From: Synergistaceae bacterium
Lineage (GTDB): Bacteria; Synergistota; Synergistia; Synergistales; Synergistaceae
Assembly (NCBI GenBank): GCA_030523725.1
Contig: JAUNHV010000005.1
Coordinates: 43,323-107,322 of the forward strand
Length of the DNA: 64,000 nucleotides
Direction of reading: 5' to 3'
Under the pieces are notes generated by a model, which ran no database searches, had not been told where the DNA came from, and saw only the letters and a program-made list of their open reading frames with translations. The position numbers and the translations under genes were made by a program. Shown piece after piece: positions 1-7,868 of this stretch (its first letter is position 1; each line of letters opens with the position of its first letter).

Positions 1-156
1 CTTGATTTATGGTTAGGAAAGGATATCCGTGGCAAGATTATTAAGATGTACTCAGAACCCAAATTTTTGGAATTTGCAGATAGAGGAATTAAAGTTGTGA
101 ATCGCTTTAAAGAACTAAACGCATTTTCAAGGGAGTATTTTGCAAATGAAGAGTGA
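1..156 (+). CDS. C-terminal fragment of an unidentified ORF running in from the left edge
   Basis: Frame 1 is open from base 1 to TGA at 154-156 (...KELNAFSREYFANEE*). It overlaps the ATG at 146 of the next gene by 11 nt, which is operon-style coupling. Only 51 residues are visible and I recognise no motif. Confidence 0.3.
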   Translation, partial: LDLWLGKDIRGKIIKMYSEPKFLEFADRGIKVVNRFKELNAFSREYFANEE

Positions 157-913
157 TGAATTTCAAGACTATCTTCAAAAAGATTTAGCTTGGAGGAAGA
201 TGGAAATATCGCAGCTCTTCAGGATACTGCAATTTTCCGAATCAAAAGAAATTGTTGCTAAATCAATAATTTTACTGCTTTATGCTCATTGGGAAGGTTT
301 TATCAAGAAAAGCAGTAAATGCTACATAAAATACATAAGTGACAAAAATATTAGATTAAGCGATCTGACGGAGAATTTTGAGGCAATAATGTTGAAAAAA
401 TATGCTATTGAATGCATTGAAAATGACAGTACAAACCTTGCAAAAGAGTTTGTTTTTCTGAATGCACAAAAGAAAAAAGCAAACAGCCCCTTTAGCATAA
501 AAATAGATCTTGATAATGAATTCGATGATAAAGTTATAGATACTCATCACAATCTATCATCAAAGGTGCTGGAAAACATTATCCAGATCGTTGGAATTGA
601 GCATAATGAAGCCATGCAAACGAGGAAGCAGTATTTAGATTCCAATCTTGTGAATAGTCGAAATACTATTGGTCACGGTAGTGTATTAAAAAATGAAGAA
701 GGTAATGCTTCACTGATTGAATACGCATGTGTGGTCAAGCTAAAGGATTTTGTTCTATCAATGTTAGACTATTATTCGGATGTGCTAATTAATTACGTTG
801 AAGATGAGCTATACCTTGTAGCAAACATAGAAAAAAGAAATCAATTTGAGGCTAAGCAATCTGAAAAGCTTTCGCGAAAATTGAAAGACATTGAATCAAG
901 AGATATTTTATGA
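146..913 (+). CDS. HEPN-domain protein (Abi-like putative RNase) linked to the R-M genes
   Basis: The track ORF 140..913 starts on TTG. An ATG at 146 lies 10 nt after AGGGAG. The protein is helical and carries an R-x4-H HEPN signature (SRNTIGHG; R codon 659-661, H codon 674-676). It resembles the HEPN-like nucleases seen next to R-M systems. That family assignment is from memory, not a search. Confidence 0.55.
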   Translation: MKSDEFQDYLQKDLAWRKMEISQLFRILQFSESKEIVAKSIILLLYAHWEGFIKKSSKCYIKYISDKNIRLSDLTENFEAIMLKKYAIECIENDSTNLAKEFVFLNAQKKKANSPFSIKIDLDNEFDDKVIDTHHNLSSKVLENIIQIVGIEHNEAMQTRKQYLDSNLVNSRNTIGHGSVLKNEEGNASLIEYACVVKLKDFVLSMLDYYSDVLINYVEDELYLVANIEKRNQFEAKQSEKLSRKLKDIESRDIL

Positions 914-929
914 TTGGTGGGTTAGGTTT

Positions 930-2339
930 ATGCAGAAACGTTGCCAAATTCCTACTCCGATTGAATATGTAAGAATAATGCTAGATGCCGCCGGATACGT
1001 TTCCGATTTATTTGGGAAGAGAATTCTCGAAAATTCATGCGGTGAGGGCAACATTCTATGTGAAATAGTCAGGAGATATATAAGTGATTGCAGATCGTCA
1101 GGTCTCAGTGGTTTTGAAATCTGCAAAGGACTTGCTCACGATATTGTAGGATACGAAATAGATGCACAATCTGTAGAAGTGTGCACACAAAGACTAAATC
1201 AATTACTTAAGGCAGAGGGAATTCCAGCGGTGTCATGGAATATTTGTCAAAGGGATTATTTGAAATCTGAGAGCAACGGATTTCATTTCATTGTTGGAAA
1301 TCCGCCTTATGTTACATATCATGATTTGGATGTTGAGACGAGGGAGTTCTTGAGGAACAATTTTGAATCATGTAAAAATGGAAGGTTTGATTATTTCTAT
1401 GCATTCACCGAAAAAAGTTATGCTACATTAGAAGAAAATGGAATCATGGTATACCTAATTCCGTTTAGCTTATTTAGAAACAAGTTTGCCATTAGTTTGC
1501 GAGAAATACTACGGAACGATCTTATTTCTGTAGTAGATTGTTCGGAAACAGCTGTATTCAGCGGAGTAACAACATCTGTTGCAATAATCAAAGTCATAAA
1601 AGGCAGCGATGCGAAAAAGGTGCGGTATTTCTGCCAGATTTCCGGTGAGCAATATTTTTTTGATAAGAATTCGCTATCTGAAAAATGGTTTTTTGCACAA
1701 GATAAAGACGGTAAAAGATTCGGAGACTATTTTCAGATTAAAAACAGCGTTGCAACCCTTTGTAACAAAGCTTTTTTGATTACTGAATATGAAGAAGCCG
1801 ATGATTATATTATATTAGGAAACTACAAAATTGAGAAGAAATTAGTAAGAACGGCAGTAAGTACAAAATCGTGTAAAAAGCAGAAGCCTACGCTTATTAT
1901 CTTCCCATATAGATTAGGAAATAGCAGGTATGAACATTTTTCCGAGGCGGAGTTTCAGCAGATATATCCGGAGGCTTCAAAATATATGAAATCATTTGCC
2001 GATGATTTGTCTAAACGTAAAGTAAGCGAAGGAGTGCTGTGGTTCGAATATGGGAGAACACAGGCGATTAACGATGTTGATGGTGAAAAACTAATTATTC
2101 CAATGGTGATAACTACAAAAGTGACTGCATATCGGGCTAATGATAAATCGGTACCTTATGCCGGGTATTTTATTAAAGCAAAAACTCCGGATCAATACAA
2201 TCTGGATTTTGCAAAAACGATATTAGAAAGCCCAGAGTTTTTCGATTATGTAAAAACTCACGGAACACCTACAACAGGTTCATCTTATAGAATTCCTGTA
2301 GAAGAAATAGCGAACTTTACATTTGGAGGAAAACAGTAA
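930..2339 (+). CDS. N6-adenine DNA methyltransferase, gamma-class (M.TaqI/Eco57I-like), no nuclease domain
   Basis: The track ORF 891..2339 starts on TTG. The first ATG is at 930. Motif I-like is ILENSCGEGNIL and motif IV is FIVGNPPYVTY (NPPY). A ~250-aa C-terminal region is consistent with a target-recognition domain. The TAA stop overlaps the ATG of mod (TAATG at 2337-2341). Confidence 0.8.
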   Translation: MQKRCQIPTPIEYVRIMLDAAGYVSDLFGKRILENSCGEGNILCEIVRRYISDCRSSGLSGFEICKGLAHDIVGYEIDAQSVEVCTQRLNQLLKAEGIPAVSWNICQRDYLKSESNGFHFIVGNPPYVTYHDLDVETREFLRNNFESCKNGRFDYFYAFTEKSYATLEENGIMVYLIPFSLFRNKFAISLREILRNDLISVVDCSETAVFSGVTTSVAIIKVIKGSDAKKVRYFCQISGEQYFFDKNSLSEKWFFAQDKDGKRFGDYFQIKNSVATLCNKAFLITEYEEADDYIILGNYKIEKKLVRTAVSTKSCKKQKPTLIIFPYRLGNSRYEHFSEAEFQQIYPEASKYMKSFADDLSKRKVSEGVLWFEYGRTQAINDVDGEKLIIPMVITTKVTAYRANDKSVPYAGYFIKAKTPDQYNLDFAKTILESPEFFDYVKTHGTPTTGSSYRIPVEEIANFTFGGKQ

Positions 2340-4195
2340 TGGATAAAATGAGAATGGAGTCAATTGATATGACAGCACAGAATATTGAGCGGATTGGGGA
2401 ACTGTTTCCAAATTGTATTACGGAGACAAGGGATGAAAACGGCAAGTTGAAGAAGGCTATTAACTTTGAGATGCTAAGGCAAATGCTTTCAAGTGATATT
2501 GCTGACGGCGATGAAGCCTATGAATTTACATGGGTGGGCAAGAAAGCGTCTATTGTTGAAGCAAACAAGCCGATCCGTAAAACCTTGCGTCCTTGTCCTG
2601 AAGAAAGTGTTGACTGGGACAAGACTGAAAACCTGTATATCGAAGGGGATAACCTTGAAGTGTTGAAGCTTTTACAGGAAAGTTATCTTGGTTCGGTGAA
2701 GATGATTTATATTGACCCACCATATAACACGGGAAATGACTTCATTTACAATGATGACTTTAAGGTGGAGAGTGAAGAGTGGAATGTGGAGAGTGGAGTT
2801 GTTGACGAAGACGGGAACCGTATGTTCAGAAATACAGATAGCAATGGGCGTTTTCATTCTGACTGGTGCAGTATGATTTATTCTCGACTTATGTTGGCAA
2901 GGAATTTGCTTTCTGACGATGGGGTTATTTTTATTAGTATTGATGATAACGAGCAAGCAACATTAAAAGCAGAATGTGATGAAATTTTTGGTAGCGACAA
3001 TTTTATATTACAAATCGCTTGGAGACGAACGGATAATCAACCCAACATAGGTACGTGTGCTAGAGTTAAAGAATATATATTGCTGTATGCAAAAAATAAA
3101 AGCCGGCTTTTATTGGGGCGTTTGCCACTGTCAGAATCAGCTAAAGCAGAATATAGATATGAAGATGCAAAAGGATTGTTCCGAAGGGGAATCCTTTTGC
3201 ATAAAACTCGTGGTCGCAAGTTTTATCCAAAAACAACAAAATTGGGAAATACACTAAACGGACCTTGGATGGTTACAGAAGAAGAGTTTGACAGATTAGA
3301 TGCAAATGGTGAGATTTATTGGACAACTAGTGGTGATGGTCAGCCTTACAGTAAGATATACTTGAGTAACAGTAAGGGGGCTATTCCAAATGATTTTTGG
3401 GGAATAGAATACGGCACTAATCAAAGAGCAAGTCTTGAGGTCGAAAAACTGTTTAATAAGAGATATTTTGATTTTCCAAAAGCTGTTTCGCTTATTAAGA
3501 CTCTAACAGTATTAGGTACACCAAACAAAGATACAATCATTCTTGATTTCTTCTCCGGTTCTGCCACAACTGCCCATGCGGTTATGCAACTTAATGCTGA
3601 AGATGGTGGAAACAGAAAATTTATTATGGTTCAGTTGCCAGAAAAATGCGATGAAAAAAGTGAGGCATATAAAGCAGGCTATAAAAATATTTGTGAAATT
3701 GGCAAGGAACGTATCAGAAGAGCAGGAGCAAAGATAAAAGAAGAGATGAAGCAAAACTCCACTCTTCACTCTCCAAACTCCACGCTCGACACGGGTTTCC
3801 GTGTCTTCAAGCTAGACGACAGCAACATGAATGATGTCTATTATTCGCCTGATGAATATAATCAAGGAAAACTAAAGGATTTGGAATCTAACATAAAGTC
3901 TGACCGCACAGACCTTGACCTTCTGTTTGGTTGCCTGCTTGACTGGGGCTTGCCACTGTCAATGCCATATACTTCCGAAAAAATTGATGGATTTACCGTT
4001 CACACCTACAATGACGGTGACCTTATCGCTTGTTTTGATGAAAATGTGCCAGAATCTGTCATAAAAGAAATTGCAAAACGCAAACCTCTCCGTGCCGTGT
4101 TTCGTGATAGTAGCTTTGAAAATAGCCCTGCAAAAATCAATGTTGAAGAAATCTTCAAATTACTTGCGCCGGACACAAGAGTCAAAGTTATTTGA
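2339..4195 (+). CDS. mod: Type III restriction-modification methyltransferase (Mod)
   Basis: Motif IV is IYIDPPYNTGNDFIYNDDF and the AdoMet motif is LDFFSGSATTAHAV, in the beta-class order (IV before I) typical of type III Mod. It lies directly upstream of a type III Res helicase-nuclease. Confidence 0.85.
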   Translation: MDKMRMESIDMTAQNIERIGELFPNCITETRDENGKLKKAINFEMLRQMLSSDIADGDEAYEFTWVGKKASIVEANKPIRKTLRPCPEESVDWDKTENLYIEGDNLEVLKLLQESYLGSVKMIYIDPPYNTGNDFIYNDDFKVESEEWNVESGVVDEDGNRMFRNTDSNGRFHSDWCSMIYSRLMLARNLLSDDGVIFISIDDNEQATLKAECDEIFGSDNFILQIAWRRTDNQPNIGTCARVKEYILLYAKNKSRLLLGRLPLSESAKAEYRYEDAKGLFRRGILLHKTRGRKFYPKTTKLGNTLNGPWMVTEEEFDRLDANGEIYWTTSGDGQPYSKIYLSNSKGAIPNDFWGIEYGTNQRASLEVEKLFNKRYFDFPKAVSLIKTLTVLGTPNKDTIILDFFSGSATTAHAVMQLNAEDGGNRKFIMVQLPEKCDEKSEAYKAGYKNICEIGKERIRRAGAKIKEEMKQNSTLHSPNSTLDTGFRVFKLDDSNMNDVYYSPDEYNQGKLKDLESNIKSDRTDLDLLFGCLLDWGLPLSMPYTSEKIDGFTVHTYNDGDLIACFDENVPESVIKEIAKRKPLRAVFRDSSFENSPAKINVEEIFKLLAPDTRVKVI

Positions 4196-4386
4196 GTTTG
4201 GAGTGTGAAGTGTGAAATGTGGAGTTGAAAGAGTGTGAAGTGTTAAGTGTGGAGTTTGGAGTTAGATGAGTGCCTAGTGTGCAACGACCAAATTGGTCAG
4301 ACACTATCTGACTTATTGAATATGGAGCTAAAAGAGTGTGGAGTGTAGAGTGTGAAGAGTGGAGTTGAAAGAGTGTGAAGTGTGTA
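4194..4386. repeat. G/T-rich imperfect repeat nest (GAGTGTGAAG / GGAGTT units) between mod and the four-helix-bundle gene
   Basis: There are two blocks, at 4194-4262 and 4331-4386. They include a perfect 23-nt direct repeat GGAGTTGAAAGAGTGTGAAGTGT at 4221-4243 and 4361-4383. Complementary C/A-rich copies lie at 3753-3783 and 4761-4796. Confidence 0.75.
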
Positions 4387-4419
4387 GTTAAATTAGGGTG
4401 AAACGGGGAGAGTTGAATT

Positions 4420-4818
4420 ATGGAACAGGAAAAGACTGTGAAATCCAAGAGCAAAAAGTTTGCCGTAAGGATTGTTAATCTTTATAAATTTCTATGCAAC
4501 GAAAAAAAAGAGTATGTTCTCTCCAAACAATTATTGCGGAGTGGAACAAGCATAGGTGCAAATATTGCAGAAAGTGAAACTGCTATCAGTAAAAAAGATT
4601 TTCTTGCCAAGCTATATATTGCATTAAAAGAAACAAATGAAAGCTTGTATTGGCTTGACTTATTGCATGACACAGAATATTTAACAAAACAGGAATATGA
4701 TTCCTTATATTTTGATTGTGAAGAGCTGCGAAAGATGCTGTCATCCTCAACTATGACGATAAACTCCACTCTCCACTCTTCAAACTCCAAACTCACGAAG
4801 GGAGGCGAAGCCGAGTGA
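4420..4818 (+). CDS. Four-helix-bundle protein (23S rRNA intervening-sequence protein family)
   Basis: The family-typical core is LLRSGTSIGANIAESETAISKKDFLAKLYIALKETNESLYWLDLL. The ATG at 4420 is preceded by GGGGAGAG. The TGA stop overlaps the GTG start of res (GTGA at 4815-4818). Confidence 0.8.
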   Translation: MEQEKTVKSKSKKFAVRIVNLYKFLCNEKKEYVLSKQLLRSGTSIGANIAESETAISKKDFLAKLYIALKETNESLYWLDLLHDTEYLTKQEYDSLYFDCEELRKMLSSSTMTINSTLHSSNSKLTKGGEAE

Positions 4819-7800
4819 AGTTACAATTTCGACATCAAAAATTTCAGGCTGATGCTGCAAAAGCTGTTGTGGACGTTTTTGCAGGACAGCCATATTCACA
4901 ATCTTCATACAGAATAGATAAGGGGCGTTTAGAGGCTCAAAGCGACCTAGGCTACCAAGAGGATTATATCGGTTGTAACAATGCAAAAATTGTGTCGGAG
5001 CTTTCTGATGGGATAATTTTAGAACACATAAACAAGATACAAAGGGCTAACCAAATAGAACCGTCACAAGCACTTGAGGGCAGATATAATCTGACGATAG
5101 AGATGGAAACAGGCGTAGGTAAAACCTATACTTATATCAAGACAATGTATGAGCTGAATAAACATTACGGATGGAGCAAATTTATTGTTGTTGTTCCAAG
5201 CATTGCTATTCGTGAAGGAGTCTATAAATCTTTTCAGATAACACAGGAGCATTTTGCAGAGGAATATGGAAAGAAAATCCGTTTCTTCATATACAATTCT
5301 GCACAATTAACAGAAATAGACCGTTTTGCTTCTGATAGCGCCATCAACGTTATGATTATCAACAGCCAAGCCTTTAACGCAAGAGGTGCGGATGCTAGGC
5401 GTATCAAGATGAAGCTGGACGAATTCCGCAGCCGCAGACCGATTGACATTATTGCGAAGACAAACCCCATCTTGATAATAGATGAGCCACAATCTGTGGA
5501 GGGAAAGCAGACGAAAGAAAATTTGAAGGAATTTCATCCGCTTTTCACACTGCGTTATTCTGCAACCCACAAGGCAGATAGCATCTATAATATGATTTAT
5601 CGTCTTGATGCACTGGAAGCATATAACAAGCATTTGGTTAAAAAAATTGCGGTAAAGGGTATTTCAGAAAGTGGCAGCACTGCCACAGATAGCTTTGTAT
5701 ATCTTCAAAGCATAAATCTTTCAAAAGATGCTCCAACTGCCACAATTCAATTTGACTGCAAAATGAAAAATGGGACAAAAGTTGTAACAAGAATTGTCGG
5801 TGAAGGATACAATCTCTATGACAATTCTGGCGAGTTGGAAGAATACCGGAAAGGCTTTGTCGTTTCCAGGATTGACGGACGTGATGACTCCATAGAATTT
5901 ATCAATGGTCTCAAAATTTATGCTGGCGATATGGTTGGAAAAGTCAGCGAGGAACAATTACGCCGTATTCAAATTCGCGAAACAATTCTTTCTCATATTG
6001 ACCGTGAACAACAATTATTCTACAAGGGAATAAAAGTGCTGTCGCTTTTCTTTATTGACGAAGTGGCACATTACAAGGTGTATGATGCTACTGGACAAGC
6101 ACAAAATGGCATTTTTGCACAGATTTTTGAGGAAGAATACAAGGACATTTTGGATAATCTGCAACACACACTTGGCGACAAAACTTATATGGAATATCTG
6201 AATGCCATAAATGCCTCTGCAACTCACGCTGGCTATTTTTCCATAGACAAAAAAGGACACATGACAAATAGCAAGGTGAACAATAGGACGGAAAAGACCT
6301 CAGATGACATCAGTGCCTATGATCTGATTATGAAAGACAAAGAATTGCTTTTGGACAGAGATCCCAAAAAAAGCCCAGTGCGTTTCATTTTTTCGCACTC
6401 AGCTTTGAGAGAGGGTTGGGATAATCCAAATGTATTTCAAATTTGCACACTAAAACAATCCTCTAGCGAAGTAAGAAAACGTCAAGAAGTTGGACGAGGC
6501 TTGAGGCTTTGCGTTAATCAAGACGGTGAACGAATGGACGCAAATGTTCTTGGAAACAGTGTGCACGATGTCAATGTCTTGACCGTTATTGCAAGCGAAA
6601 GCTATGACAGTTTTGCAAAGGGACTCCAAGCTGAAATTGCGGAAGCTGTCGCAGACCGCCCAAGAGCAGTAACGGCTGAACTCTTCAAAGGAAAAGTTGT
6701 CAAGGACAGTGCAGGGAATGAAATTCCTATAGATGAGGATATAGCCGATGCTATCATTTATGAGCTTACAATGAATGGTTACATTGACAAGAAACATAAT
6801 CTAACAGATAAATACTATGAAGACAAACAAAATAATACTCTTGAATTTGCTGAAGAAGTAAAAGATTGTGCCTCTGATGTAATTACCATTCTTGAGTCTG
6901 TTTACAATCCTGCTTCAATGGCTCCGGAAAACGCAAGGAGCAATAATGTTGAGTTACGAGTCAGTCCGGACAAGCTTGCTATGGCAGAATTCAAAGCCCT
7001 GTGGTCAAAAATCAATTCAAAATCTGTTTATGTGGTGGACTTTGATACAGAAGAGCTTATTAGAAACTCCATCAATGCGTTAAACACAAAACTTCATGTA
7101 TCAAAGATATATTTCACAGTAGAAACAGGGCAGATGAACGATATAAAATCAAAAGAAGACTTGCAGGCAGGACTTTCCATGGAGCAAGCTCCGACTACAC
7201 ACCGTTACGATAGTCATATTGCATCTGCCAATAAATCTGTGAAATACGATCTCATTGGAAAATTGGTAGAAGAAACAAATCTCACTCGCAAAGACATAAT
7301 AGCGATACTCACAGGAATTGAAAAGGTTATATTTGATCAGTTCAAGGATAATCCGGAAGAATTTATTATCAAGGCGGCATCCTTAATCAATGAAGAAAAA
7401 GCGAATGTCGTCATTGAGCACATTACATACAACGTGCTTGATGAAAAGTATGATACAGATGTATTCACCGACCCAACAATTAAGGGGCGGTTAGATAAAA
7501 ATGCAATGAAGACAAATAAACATTTGTATGATCACGTTGTTTATGATTCAGACAACGAGATGAAATTTGCAAAAGATTTGGAGGATAACACAGAGGTTGC
7601 TGTATATGTGAAATTGCCAAGAGGTTTCTATATCTCCACTCCCGTTGGGCACTATAACCCAGACTGGGCAATAGCTTTCTATGAAGGGAGCGTTAAGCAT
7701 ATTTATTTCGTTGCAGAAACAAAAGGCTCTATACAATCTTTAGAACTTAGATTGATTGAAAAGGCAAAAATTCACTGTGCAAAGGAACATTTCAAAGCAA

Positions 7801-7868
7801 TCAGCAACGGCAATGTAGTTTACAGTGTTGTTACAAATTATAGCGAACTGCTGAATTTGGTGAAGTAA
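4815..7868 (+). CDS. res: Type III restriction enzyme Res subunit (SF2 helicase + PD-(D/E)xK nuclease)
   Basis: The N-terminus is MKLQFRHQKFQADAAKAV. Helicase motif I is METGVGKTYTY, motif II is IIDEPQS and motif VI is RQEVGRGLRL. The C-terminal nuclease motif is YNPDWAIAF...FVAETKG. Confidence 0.9.
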   Translation: MKLQFRHQKFQADAAKAVVDVFAGQPYSQSSYRIDKGRLEAQSDLGYQEDYIGCNNAKIVSELSDGIILEHINKIQRANQIEPSQALEGRYNLTIEMETGVGKTYTYIKTMYELNKHYGWSKFIVVVPSIAIREGVYKSFQITQEHFAEEYGKKIRFFIYNSAQLTEIDRFASDSAINVMIINSQAFNARGADARRIKMKLDEFRSRRPIDIIAKTNPILIIDEPQSVEGKQTKENLKEFHPLFTLRYSATHKADSIYNMIYRLDALEAYNKHLVKKIAVKGISESGSTATDSFVYLQSINLSKDAPTATIQFDCKMKNGTKVVTRIVGEGYNLYDNSGELEEYRKGFVVSRIDGRDDSIEFINGLKIYAGDMVGKVSEEQLRRIQIRETILSHIDREQQLFYKGIKVLSLFFIDEVAHYKVYDATGQAQNGIFAQIFEEEYKDILDNLQHTLGDKTYMEYLNAINASATHAGYFSIDKKGHMTNSKVNNRTEKTSDDISAYDLIMKDKELLLDRDPKKSPVRFIFSHSALREGWDNPNVFQICTLKQSSSEVRKRQEVGRGLRLCVNQDGERMDANVLGNSVHDVNVLTVIASESYDSFAKGLQAEIAEAVADRPRAVTAELFKGKVVKDSAGNEIPIDEDIADAIIYELTMNGYIDKKHNLTDKYYEDKQNNTLEFAEEVKDCASDVITILESVYNPASMAPENARSNNVELRVSPDKLAMAEFKALWSKINSKSVYVVDFDTEELIRNSINALNTKLHVSKIYFTVETGQMNDIKSKEDLQAGLSMEQAPTTHRYDSHIASANKSVKYDLIGKLVEETNLTRKDIIAILTGIEKVIFDQFKDNPEEFIIKAASLINEEKANVVIEHITYNVLDEKYDTDVFTDPTIKGRLDKNAMKTNKHLYDHVVYDSDNEMKFAKDLEDNTEVAVYVKLPRGFYISTPVGHYNPDWAIAFYEGSVKHIYFVAETKGSIQSLELRLIEKAKIHCAKEHFKAISNGNVVYSVVTNYSELLNLVK

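Follow-up and report, generated by a model that had tools for sequence, protein, structure and literature searches.

Intervening sequences (IVSs) of 23S rRNA that carry an open reading frame (ORF) have been an unexplained curiosity since the early 1990s. In Coxiella burnetii, the IVS that encodes S23p has tandem heptamers ahead of the S23p ORF and a 28-bp terminal stem that is cut internally by RNase III (Warrier et al. 2016, PMC4990558). The Coxiella heptamers have the sequence GACAGAT and their unit number differs between strains (PMC4990558). Genes of the same protein family, PF05635, have also been recorded within cas operons, for example between cmr3 and cmr2, with the motif GxxRxxxSxxxNxxE (Zhang et al. 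2013, PMC3936711). Here we describe such a gene, encoding a four-helix-bundle protein, between the mod and res genes of a type III restriction-modification (R-M) operon of a Synergistaceae bacterium (GenBank assembly GCA_030523725.1, contig JAUNHV010000005.1). The stretch analysed, referred to as the window, comprises 64,000 nt (contig C13:43323-107322 in our numbering) of a 1.55-Mb, 39% G+C and 100%-complete genome. Between the stop codon of mod and the ribosome-binding site of res, positions 4196-4796 of the window form a 0.6-kb intervening-sequence-type cassette, an rRNA-type IVS living in an mRNA operon. A literature search found the heptamer-armed PF05635 architecture described only for 23S rRNA. 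The explanation that we favour, with a probability of roughly 0.55, is that the arms of the cassette are cis-acting ends, that the cassette is coupled to res, and that its arrays are kept alike by DNA-level copying.

The borders were placed by comparison with operons that lack the cassette. Res orthologues were found in 55 of 268 Synergistota genomes and yielded 26 readable junctions, 12 of them cassette-less. In these 12, only 2-54 nt separate the mod stop from the res start, typically as TGA-GGGAGG-(~8 nt)-GTG. Excising 4196-4796 from the window gives ...GTTATTTGA|ACGAAGGGAGGCGAAGCCGA-GTG, which is the layout of an empty junction; the empty site left by removal of the whole cassette reads ...GTTATTTGA|ACGAAGGGAGG.... 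Judged from the cassette-less layout, the left border is thus the mod stop codon (~4196) and the right border is the end of the 3′ array, C2 (~4796). An earlier first-pass annotation of this DNA, made from the letters alone, had proposed an IVS-like insertion, and both the PF05635 ORF enclosed by inverted heptamer arrays and the empty orthologous junctions agree with it. The insert does not have the makings of a transposable element or a miniature inverted-repeat transposable element (MITE), as its sole ORF is the PF05635 gene, its GAGTGTG arrays are confined to the operon and no target duplication is visible at its borders. The features of the cassette and its host genes are:

2339-4195, + strand, type III mod, 618 aa, N6_N4_Mtase (Pfam PF01555, E 2.9e-30), carrying two in-frame repeat arrays
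2763-2802, + strand, G0, purine-rich heptamer array within mod, encoding KVESEEWNVESGV and equal in length to the native loop of orthologues
3753-3787, + strand, C1, pyrimidine-rich array with 5 units, in the linker that joins the methylase core of Mod to its C-terminal domain, encoding NSTLHSPNSTL
4194-4272, + strand, G1, first 5′ array, ~11 units of ~7 nt, starting on the mod stop codon (TGA 4193-4195)
4273-4330, + strand, spacer from G1 to G2, unique in the genome and containing two small local hairpins
4331-4390, + strand, G2, second 5′ array, ~8 units, nearest the four-helix-bundle gene
4405-4412, + strand, Shine-Dalgarno-like GGGGAGAG, 7 nt 5′ of the four-helix-bundle ATG and outside the arrays, as read from the sequence
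4420-4818, + strand, four-helix-bundle gene, 132 aa (PF05635, 23S rRNA intervening-sequence protein family)
4761-4796, + strand, C2, 3′ array with 5 units that can pair with G0, G1 and G2 as their complement, translated as NSTLHSSNSKL in the 3′ end of the PF05635 gene
4797-4817, + strand, native res leader, with the Shine-Dalgarno GGGAGG at 4800-4805 and the GTG start at 4815-4817
4815-7868, + strand, type III res, 1017 aa (Pfam ResIII, DEAD, RE_endonuc)

The G/T-rich and C/A-rich blocks of the first-pass annotation were all present where it had put them, as was its 23-nt repeat, GGAGTTGAAAGAGTGTGAAGTGT, which is exact at 4221 and 4361 and occurs at no other site in the window. Its four arrays therefore stand, but the inventory was incomplete. 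Scanning the window against C1 and C2 brought out a fifth array, G0, which the annotation had missed, and with G0 it had also missed that the two arrays in mod complement each other. G0 has 9-12-nt words in common with G1 and G2. Allowing up to one mismatch, GAGTGTGAAGTG occurs five times where 0.34 occurrences are expected, and Tandem Repeats Finder reported periods of 7, 14 and 37 in the G1/G2 blocks. A further direct-repeat family, D2, relates 4216-4281 to 4319-4384 (77%), and a partial tandem duplication appears to have produced G1 with the spacer and the spacer with G2. No copies of the GAGTGTG repeat family were found outside the operon when the whole 1.55-Mb genome was searched, so it is not a dispersed repeat.

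Pairing between the arrays far exceeds chance. Complementarity reaches 88% over 33 nt for C1:G2, 85% over 34 nt for G1:C2 and 82% over 33 nt for G2:C2. The predicted duplexes (C1:G2 -52.9, G1:C2 -44.9, G2:C2 -42.7 and C1:G1 -39.6 kcal/mol) lie far below those of composition-matched shuffled arms (-25 to -28 kcal/mol, standard deviation ~4), in keeping with the earlier claim that each G-rich block has a complementary partner. Duplexes of G0 with C1 (-44.8 kcal/mol) and with C2 (-43.6 kcal/mol) are comparable to those of the cassette's own arms, whereas the strongest of 6335 other 40-nt windows in the 64 kb attained only -27 kcal/mol. A candidate C-type array in res (5531) was rejected, its duplex strength being within this background. 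Folds of 476-611 nt were also more stable than shuffled controls (z = -2.8 to -3.65, and -2.9 to -3.65 for folds of the cassette), as the annotation had anticipated, with long-range stems in the minimum-free-energy (MFE) and centroid structures alike; the G2:C2 stem was present in both.

The same architecture recurs in a same-genus genome that was assembled independently (L003/L057) and is 98% identical to the window over 3700-4900. There, G1 is 14 nt (two units) shorter, and between the two genomes the arms have evolved faster than the ORF. More widely, arm pairs were scored by an ungapped arm search in 47 loci encoding relatives of the protein. An inverted array pair surrounded the gene in 42 of the 47, and control scores were low. 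The heptamers varied by locus (GAGTGTG, GGAATTA, GAGTTTA, AATGCGT, GTGACGA, GTAAAAA and others), while the 5′ and 3′ arms matched within a locus. The purine-rich array was the 5′ one in 39 of 39 loci, a constant polarity that would reflect either some strand-specific constraint or common descent. In the loci inspected, including all mod-IVP-res loci (IVP, intervening-sequence protein) checked against the Mod alignments, the 5′ array began at or within a few nt of the upstream gene's stop.

Elsewhere in this genome, a second PF05635 gene lies between pyrE and pyrB (contig C7:9745-10440; locus L002, 1305-2000). Two copies of a ~150-nt hairpin element flank the gene; the element has GAGAATT/AATTCTC arms and a conserved loop hairpin, GTGCCACAAA(A/G)TGGCAC. 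At least 18 GAGAATT arrays were counted at about 11 or more sites (contigs C3, C4, C6, C7, C8, C9 and C10), mostly as gene-less hairpins. These look like a MITE-like family sharing arms with the C7 gene. No rRNA was found near those GAGAATT hairpins that are located at contig ends.

The cassette gene is a clear PF05635 member (residues 6-108, E 1.2e-31, 109.5 bits against a Pfam cut-off of 33.8), and its closest solved relative is PDB 2RLD (residues 4-113, E 5.3e-38), listed with five chains. The motif RxxxSxxxNxxE is present as RSGTSIGANIAE, with the leading G of GxxRxxxSxxxNxxE replaced by Q. The fold ends near residue 108, and C2 and the res leader code for the 24 residues at the C-terminus. 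The stop codon (TGA, 4816-4818) overlaps the res start (GTG, 4815-4817) as GTGA, the overlap from which the first-pass annotation had read translational coupling to res. Such coupling appears to be conserved in the subfamily. Of the 120 protein clusters nearest to the cassette protein (at least 67% identity), 118 have an arm-coded tail and 83 extend into ...KGG(T/E)..., the in-frame translation of the res Shine-Dalgarno. Three clusters were looked up (P0123, P0140 and P0150, the last indexed in 121 blocks of the collection); all had the order mod, IVP, res, and the small-gene stop overlapped the res start or lay 9 nt upstream of it. From the tails and the read-through, this PF05635 subfamily appears to be a long-term resident of the mod-res junction, translationally coupled to res, and the coupling would be a conserved trait of the subfamily rather than a quirk of the window. 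In cassette-less relatives an equivalent type of leader stands directly 3′ of the mod stop (TGAGGGAGGGGCTGCGgtg), and coupling between IVP and res appears to take the place of the direct coupling of mod to res at empty junctions. Some of the conservation may be passive. C-type arrays are stop-free in every frame, so that an ORF entering one must continue to the res leader.

The content of the junction changes at least 18 times among 34 loci on the Res tree, and the PF05635 state changes five times by parsimony, at least three of these changes being forced by well-supported branches. In loci L058-L083 the junction is a swappable slot holding DUF1016/YhcG nuclease, Fic/Bro-N, Fic, RhuM or winged helix-turn-helix (wHTH) genes, often with TGATG/TAATG overlaps. 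A solo 5′ G-type heptamer array precedes the Fic gene of L062, and a solo C-type remnant, CCACACTCCACACT, is read through by the 3′ end of the DUF1016 ORF of L060. The closest outgroup operon (L014, 2821-3410) contains, in order, a G-arm, ~70 nt, a C-arm, the four-helix-bundle gene and a second C-arm. Its small gene is apparently frameshifted in an A-run just past the TTG start, and could be a pseudogene or reflect an assembly error.

Two of the five arrays are written into mod itself. G0 replaces the native loop after motif IV, with its length unchanged relative to orthologues, and C1 occupies the linker. Cassette-less Mod orthologues have a 12-14-residue linker, the native loop at the G0 site and no NSTLHS segment, which upholds the earlier suggestion that a copy of the repeat was absorbed into the Mod coding sequence. 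Among the 120 closest Mods, the G0 site was arm-coded in nine; eight of these nine also had an arm-coded linker, against 0 of the 111 others (Fisher p = 1e-11, uncorrected for phylogeny and with only about three independent lineages). All G0 variants retain E-E-aromatic and S/N-G; protein function has filtered the recoding. Duplexes between G0 and the linker are predicted at -29 to -49 kcal/mol in arm-bearing Mods versus -6 to -16 in arm-less ones. The arm-less Mods P0003, P0036 and P0100 had no arrays, and no PF05635 gene within 2.5 kb.

The in-mod arrays belong to two heptamer families, VESG.../NSTLHS... (GAGTGKG) and GIRS.../NSSLPTPN... (GGAATTA). In L091 a GAGTGKG-armed cassette lies upstream of mod, and GAGTGKG is found at G0 and the linker as well. 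In L092 a GGAATTA-armed cassette follows the mod stop; G0 also has GGAATTA, and the linker holds a complete mini-hairpin that lacks a gene. L101 and L103 have a layout identical to that of the window, and their in-mod arrays match the family of the cassette. L093 is mixed, its heptamer family at G0 differing from that of the linker and IVP, and L105 has arrays at G0 and two further sites. Extra in-frame heptamer arrays were seen in the DUF4391 gene (L093, 2279-2308), the Mod N-terminus (L105, 911-949) and the Mod C-terminal domain (L105, 2759-2793). Although the Mod tree retained ~30 arm-site columns, which tend to draw arm-bearing rows together, the arm-bearing Mods occupied three places on it. 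Their arm sites were 77-88% identical in nucleotides to those of the window where the Mods were only 65% identical, whereas arm-less Mods at 74-78% protein identity were only 37-57% identical at the arm sites. Since arm-site identity is discordant with the Mod tree, the arrays follow the cassette and not the mod gene.

The Mod linker can also receive a whole cassette. In L084, from Synergistota genome G085, a complete PF05635 cassette with heptamer arms (580-1060, E 1.8e-40) was found in the linker that holds C1 in the window, and the linker is therefore a second landing site. The mod frame is open through the entire cassette (a 491-aa open frame), with the small gene in another frame. Not every repeat in this linker is an arm: the ‘NSPNSK’ of L006 was dismissed as a local palindrome. 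The linker of L061 contains an in-frame G+C-rich palindromic insert (GGGGCAGGCCCATGTGTCTGCCCC...GGGCAACCACGGGGGGTTGCCC, read as GAGPCVCPGAGQPRGVA), a different type of hairpin at the same tolerant site. A derivation of arms from local target sequence, considered from the L077 and L084 linkers, was dropped as the alignment was unconvincing.

With five mutually complementary arrays, more than one global fold can be drawn. In the MFE structure of the naked 2.1-kb RNA (2740-4840), G0:C2 encloses C1:G2. The cost is 100 kcal/mol when all five arrays are blocked, and 39 kcal/mol (-496.5 vs -535.7) when only G0 and C1 are. The latter block would mimic ribosomes translating mod, freeing G1 or G2 to pair with C2, and such alternating folds could in principle link Res synthesis to Mod translation. 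If the RNA helix were maintained base pair by base pair, an excess of G-U-type mismatches would be expected. None was seen in 39 distinct loci (30 G-U-type against 38 A-C-type, p = 0.40). The missing G-U excess, the fast-evolving arms and the same-length patch at G0 point to templated DNA-level copying between inverted repeats, which suggests that the arrays are homogenised in this way.

The operon has the composition of a type III R-M system, in which Res, with its ResIII helicase and endonuclease domain, comes after Mod (N6_N4_Mtase); Mod was aligned to its PDB relatives 6K0W and 4ZCF Mod. On the + strand the order is HEPN protein (140-913), Eco57I-like methylase (891-2339), Mod (2339-4195), PF05635 gene (4420-4818), Res (4815-7868) and RhuM. 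The HEPN gene (MAE_28990/RiboL-PSP type) and the Eco57I-like N6-adenine methylase gene are chained immediately 5′ of mod (window 140-2339), and other relatives of this Mod have SNF2 and DUF4391 as their upstream partners, with or without TIR. Compared with same-genus L003, mod is a mosaic: identity is 97% at 2405-2504, 30-55% in the central region and 98% again from ~3700. The divergent central part (2800-3700 in this comparison) is presumably the target-recognition determinant. A second short divergent patch lies in res (4900-4999, 54% identity), and the Mod C-terminal domain, the cassette and the 5′ end of res behave as a single conserved module in the comparison. A genome search found RNase III encoded. 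The promoter and terminator scan found no terminator in the region and promoter-like matches not above those of shuffled sequence, and Rfam gave no credible match at 3500-5000.

We suggest the following mechanism for the cassette. The arrays would form its ends, and pairing of G1 or G2 with C2 in the transcript would fold out the 0.6-kb insert as a hairpin, bringing the mod stop within a few nt of the res leader. The cassette ORF, meeting no stop in the C array, would traverse the arm and the res Shine-Dalgarno and end on the res start. Ribosomes translating this ORF would melt the stem and hand over to res, substituting for the direct coupling of mod to res. By analogy with the 23S rRNA IVS, RNase III might cleave the stem. 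The arrays would be kept alike by template switching or gene conversion between inverted arrays, not by selection on the RNA at the level of base pairs, and the same DNA-level copying would also have seeded G0 and C1 in tolerant Mod loops. Any effect on the Res:Mod ratio would then be a consequence rather than a demonstrated purpose.

Several points weigh against this explanation. In-mod arrays are absent from the mod-IVP-res operons L004-L006, L008, L014 and L023, and where they are present, recoded and matched, simple passenger status does not explain them. An insulating insert likewise fails to account for the in-mod arrays, or for a G0 recoding that keeps E-E-aromatic and S-G; the recoding is a hint that the arrays as such are under selection. 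The MFE structure of the naked RNA prefers G0:C2 and C1:G2 over pairing of G1 or G2 with C2, and the missing G-U excess argues against strong selection on an RNA helix. The stem, its cutting by RNase III and the translational coupling are all predictions. The nearest non-self protein is 80% identical and no near-identical cassette was found in another context, so that we infer mobility solely from phylogenetic scatter.

In a rival reading, the protein itself acts on the repeats. The heptamer arrays would be DNA or single-stranded binding sites of a pentameric four-helix-bundle protein, with heptamers specific to each lineage, and the protein together with its arrays would spread them both in cis, as G0 and C1 within mod, and in trans, as the gene-less hairpins, by a logic like that of the repetitive extragenic palindromes (REPs) and their associated tyrosine transposases (RAYTs). 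The match of arms within a locus and their difference between loci would be expected, and the common array size of about five units (G0, C1 and C2) recalls the five chains of 2RLD. The C7 gene shares its arms with scattered arrays while GAGTGTG stays in its own operon; the in-mod arrays track the cassette rather than Mod phylogeny; G0 is recoded under protein constraint; and the lack of a G-U excess also fits. Against it, PF05635 proteins are not known to act as nucleases or recombinases, neither target duplication nor recent movement of the window cassette was seen, and the G0 family of L093 does not match its linker and IVP. We regard this reading as possible but doubtful. A slightly more doubtful version combines it with control: PF05635 proteins and heptamer arrays would be a system that writes its own arrays into neighbouring DNA and makes Res synthesis dependent on Mod translation. 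The G0/C1 pair would flank the catalytic and target-recognition core of Mod and a second pair would flank the cassette gene, with transcript or DNA switching between G0:C1 plus G:C2 and G0:C2 around C1:G2.

The first-pass annotation had inferred that long-range duplexes could set the restriction-to-modification ratio, by providing RNase III processing sites or by occluding res translation. As a dedicated regulator of that ratio, alternative duplexes among the five arrays would serve as RNase III sites or as a gate on res translation, and Res would be made only during mod translation, delaying restriction on entry into a new host. Res of EcoP1I and EcoP15I is under post-transcriptional control, the subfamily is stably associated with the mod-res junction and conserves its coupling to res, the five arrays permit two global folds, and the genome encodes RNase III. 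However, in sister operons with 65-75% Res identity the junction is empty or holds a DUF1016, Fic, RhuM or wHTH passenger, the junction state turns over at the rate described above, and related cassettes occur in housekeeping operons such as pyrE/pyrB in this genome. The res Shine-Dalgarno (4800-4805) lies outside all arms, and cleavage at G0:C1 or C1:G2 would sever the mod message. We consider such a regulator unlikely, and the comparative data speak more for a passenger of long standing that is coupled to res than for a dedicated role in regulation. An accessory gene of a diversity-generating retroelement (DGR), with an Avd-like protein and a reverse transcriptase rewriting targets such as G0, would account for a same-length patch, and PF05635 is the fold and family of Avd (PMC10053308). 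However, no RVT_1 reverse transcriptase (PF00078) was detected in the 100%-complete genome, in a search whose controls matched, no template and variable repeat pair with adenine-specific differences was found, and the protein did not match the bAvd model. Since the genome lacks a reverse transcriptase, the protein is not a DGR Avd, and this very improbable reading was rejected. The arrays are low-complexity, G/T- or C/A-rich sequence, which might raise the suspicion of chance or of an assembly artefact. This is the least credible reading of all and was excluded by the independent same-genus assembly, by recurrence of the architecture in dozens of loci, and by the 12-mer count and duplex statistics.

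Heptamer repeats are in unexplained excess in many bacterial genomes. The window presents a gene-plus-arms unit in a protein operon, coupled downstream, with matched arm copies recoded at fixed positions of the neighbouring enzyme gene. It is an example of nucleotide-level constraint or conversion in a coding region, contrary to the gene's own phylogeny. It also offers a tractable setting for the function of the four-helix-bundle protein and its arms, as restriction is easily scored and one relative, Eubacterium coprostanoligenes ATCC 51222, is cultured. For type III systems it may represent a new layer of control of Res against Mod expression. If the self-writing reading were true, it would constitute a new control module and quasi-mobile element for R-M systems, and would unite the unexplained bacterial heptamer repeats and the rRNA IVS under one mechanism.

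Among known systems, DGR Avd shares the four-helix-bundle fold and is from a PF05635-related family, but differs by its partners, as neither reverse transcriptase nor template/variable repeat pair accompanies the window protein and the bAvd model is unmatched. REP/RAYT systems (REPINs) and MITEs resemble the GAGAATT hairpins, being short palindromic elements, here gene-less, tied to one small protein gene. However, the PF05635 protein is not a Y1 transposase, the arms are heptamer arrays that vary by locus, and no dispersed copies exist of the GAGTGTG family found in the window. Like the passenger genes of R-M operons (DUF1016/YhcG, Fic, RhuM or wHTH in relatives), the cassette gene occupies the mod-res junction, but those passengers have no paired inverted heptamer arrays, only the solo arrays of L062 and L060. 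The PF05635 genes of cas operons are also 23S_rRNA_IVP genes wedged into a defence operon and bear the RxxxSxxxNxxE motif; PMC3936711 mentions no repeat arms or cassette and treats the gene as having a possible cas-associated function. Closest is the 23S rRNA IVS of Leptospira and Coxiella burnetii, which has a PF05635 protein, terminal inverted repeats forming a ~30-bp stem, no transposase, and tandem heptamers by the ORF start in variable number, just as G1 of the window is two units longer than that of L003. Excision by RNase III, established there, is only predicted in the window by analogy. Unlike the rRNA elements, the window cassette is hosted by an mRNA operon, between mod and res rather than in a 23S rRNA helix. 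Its ORF exits through the 3′ arm into the next leader and is coupled to res, and extra copies of its arms stand in frame within the neighbouring gene.

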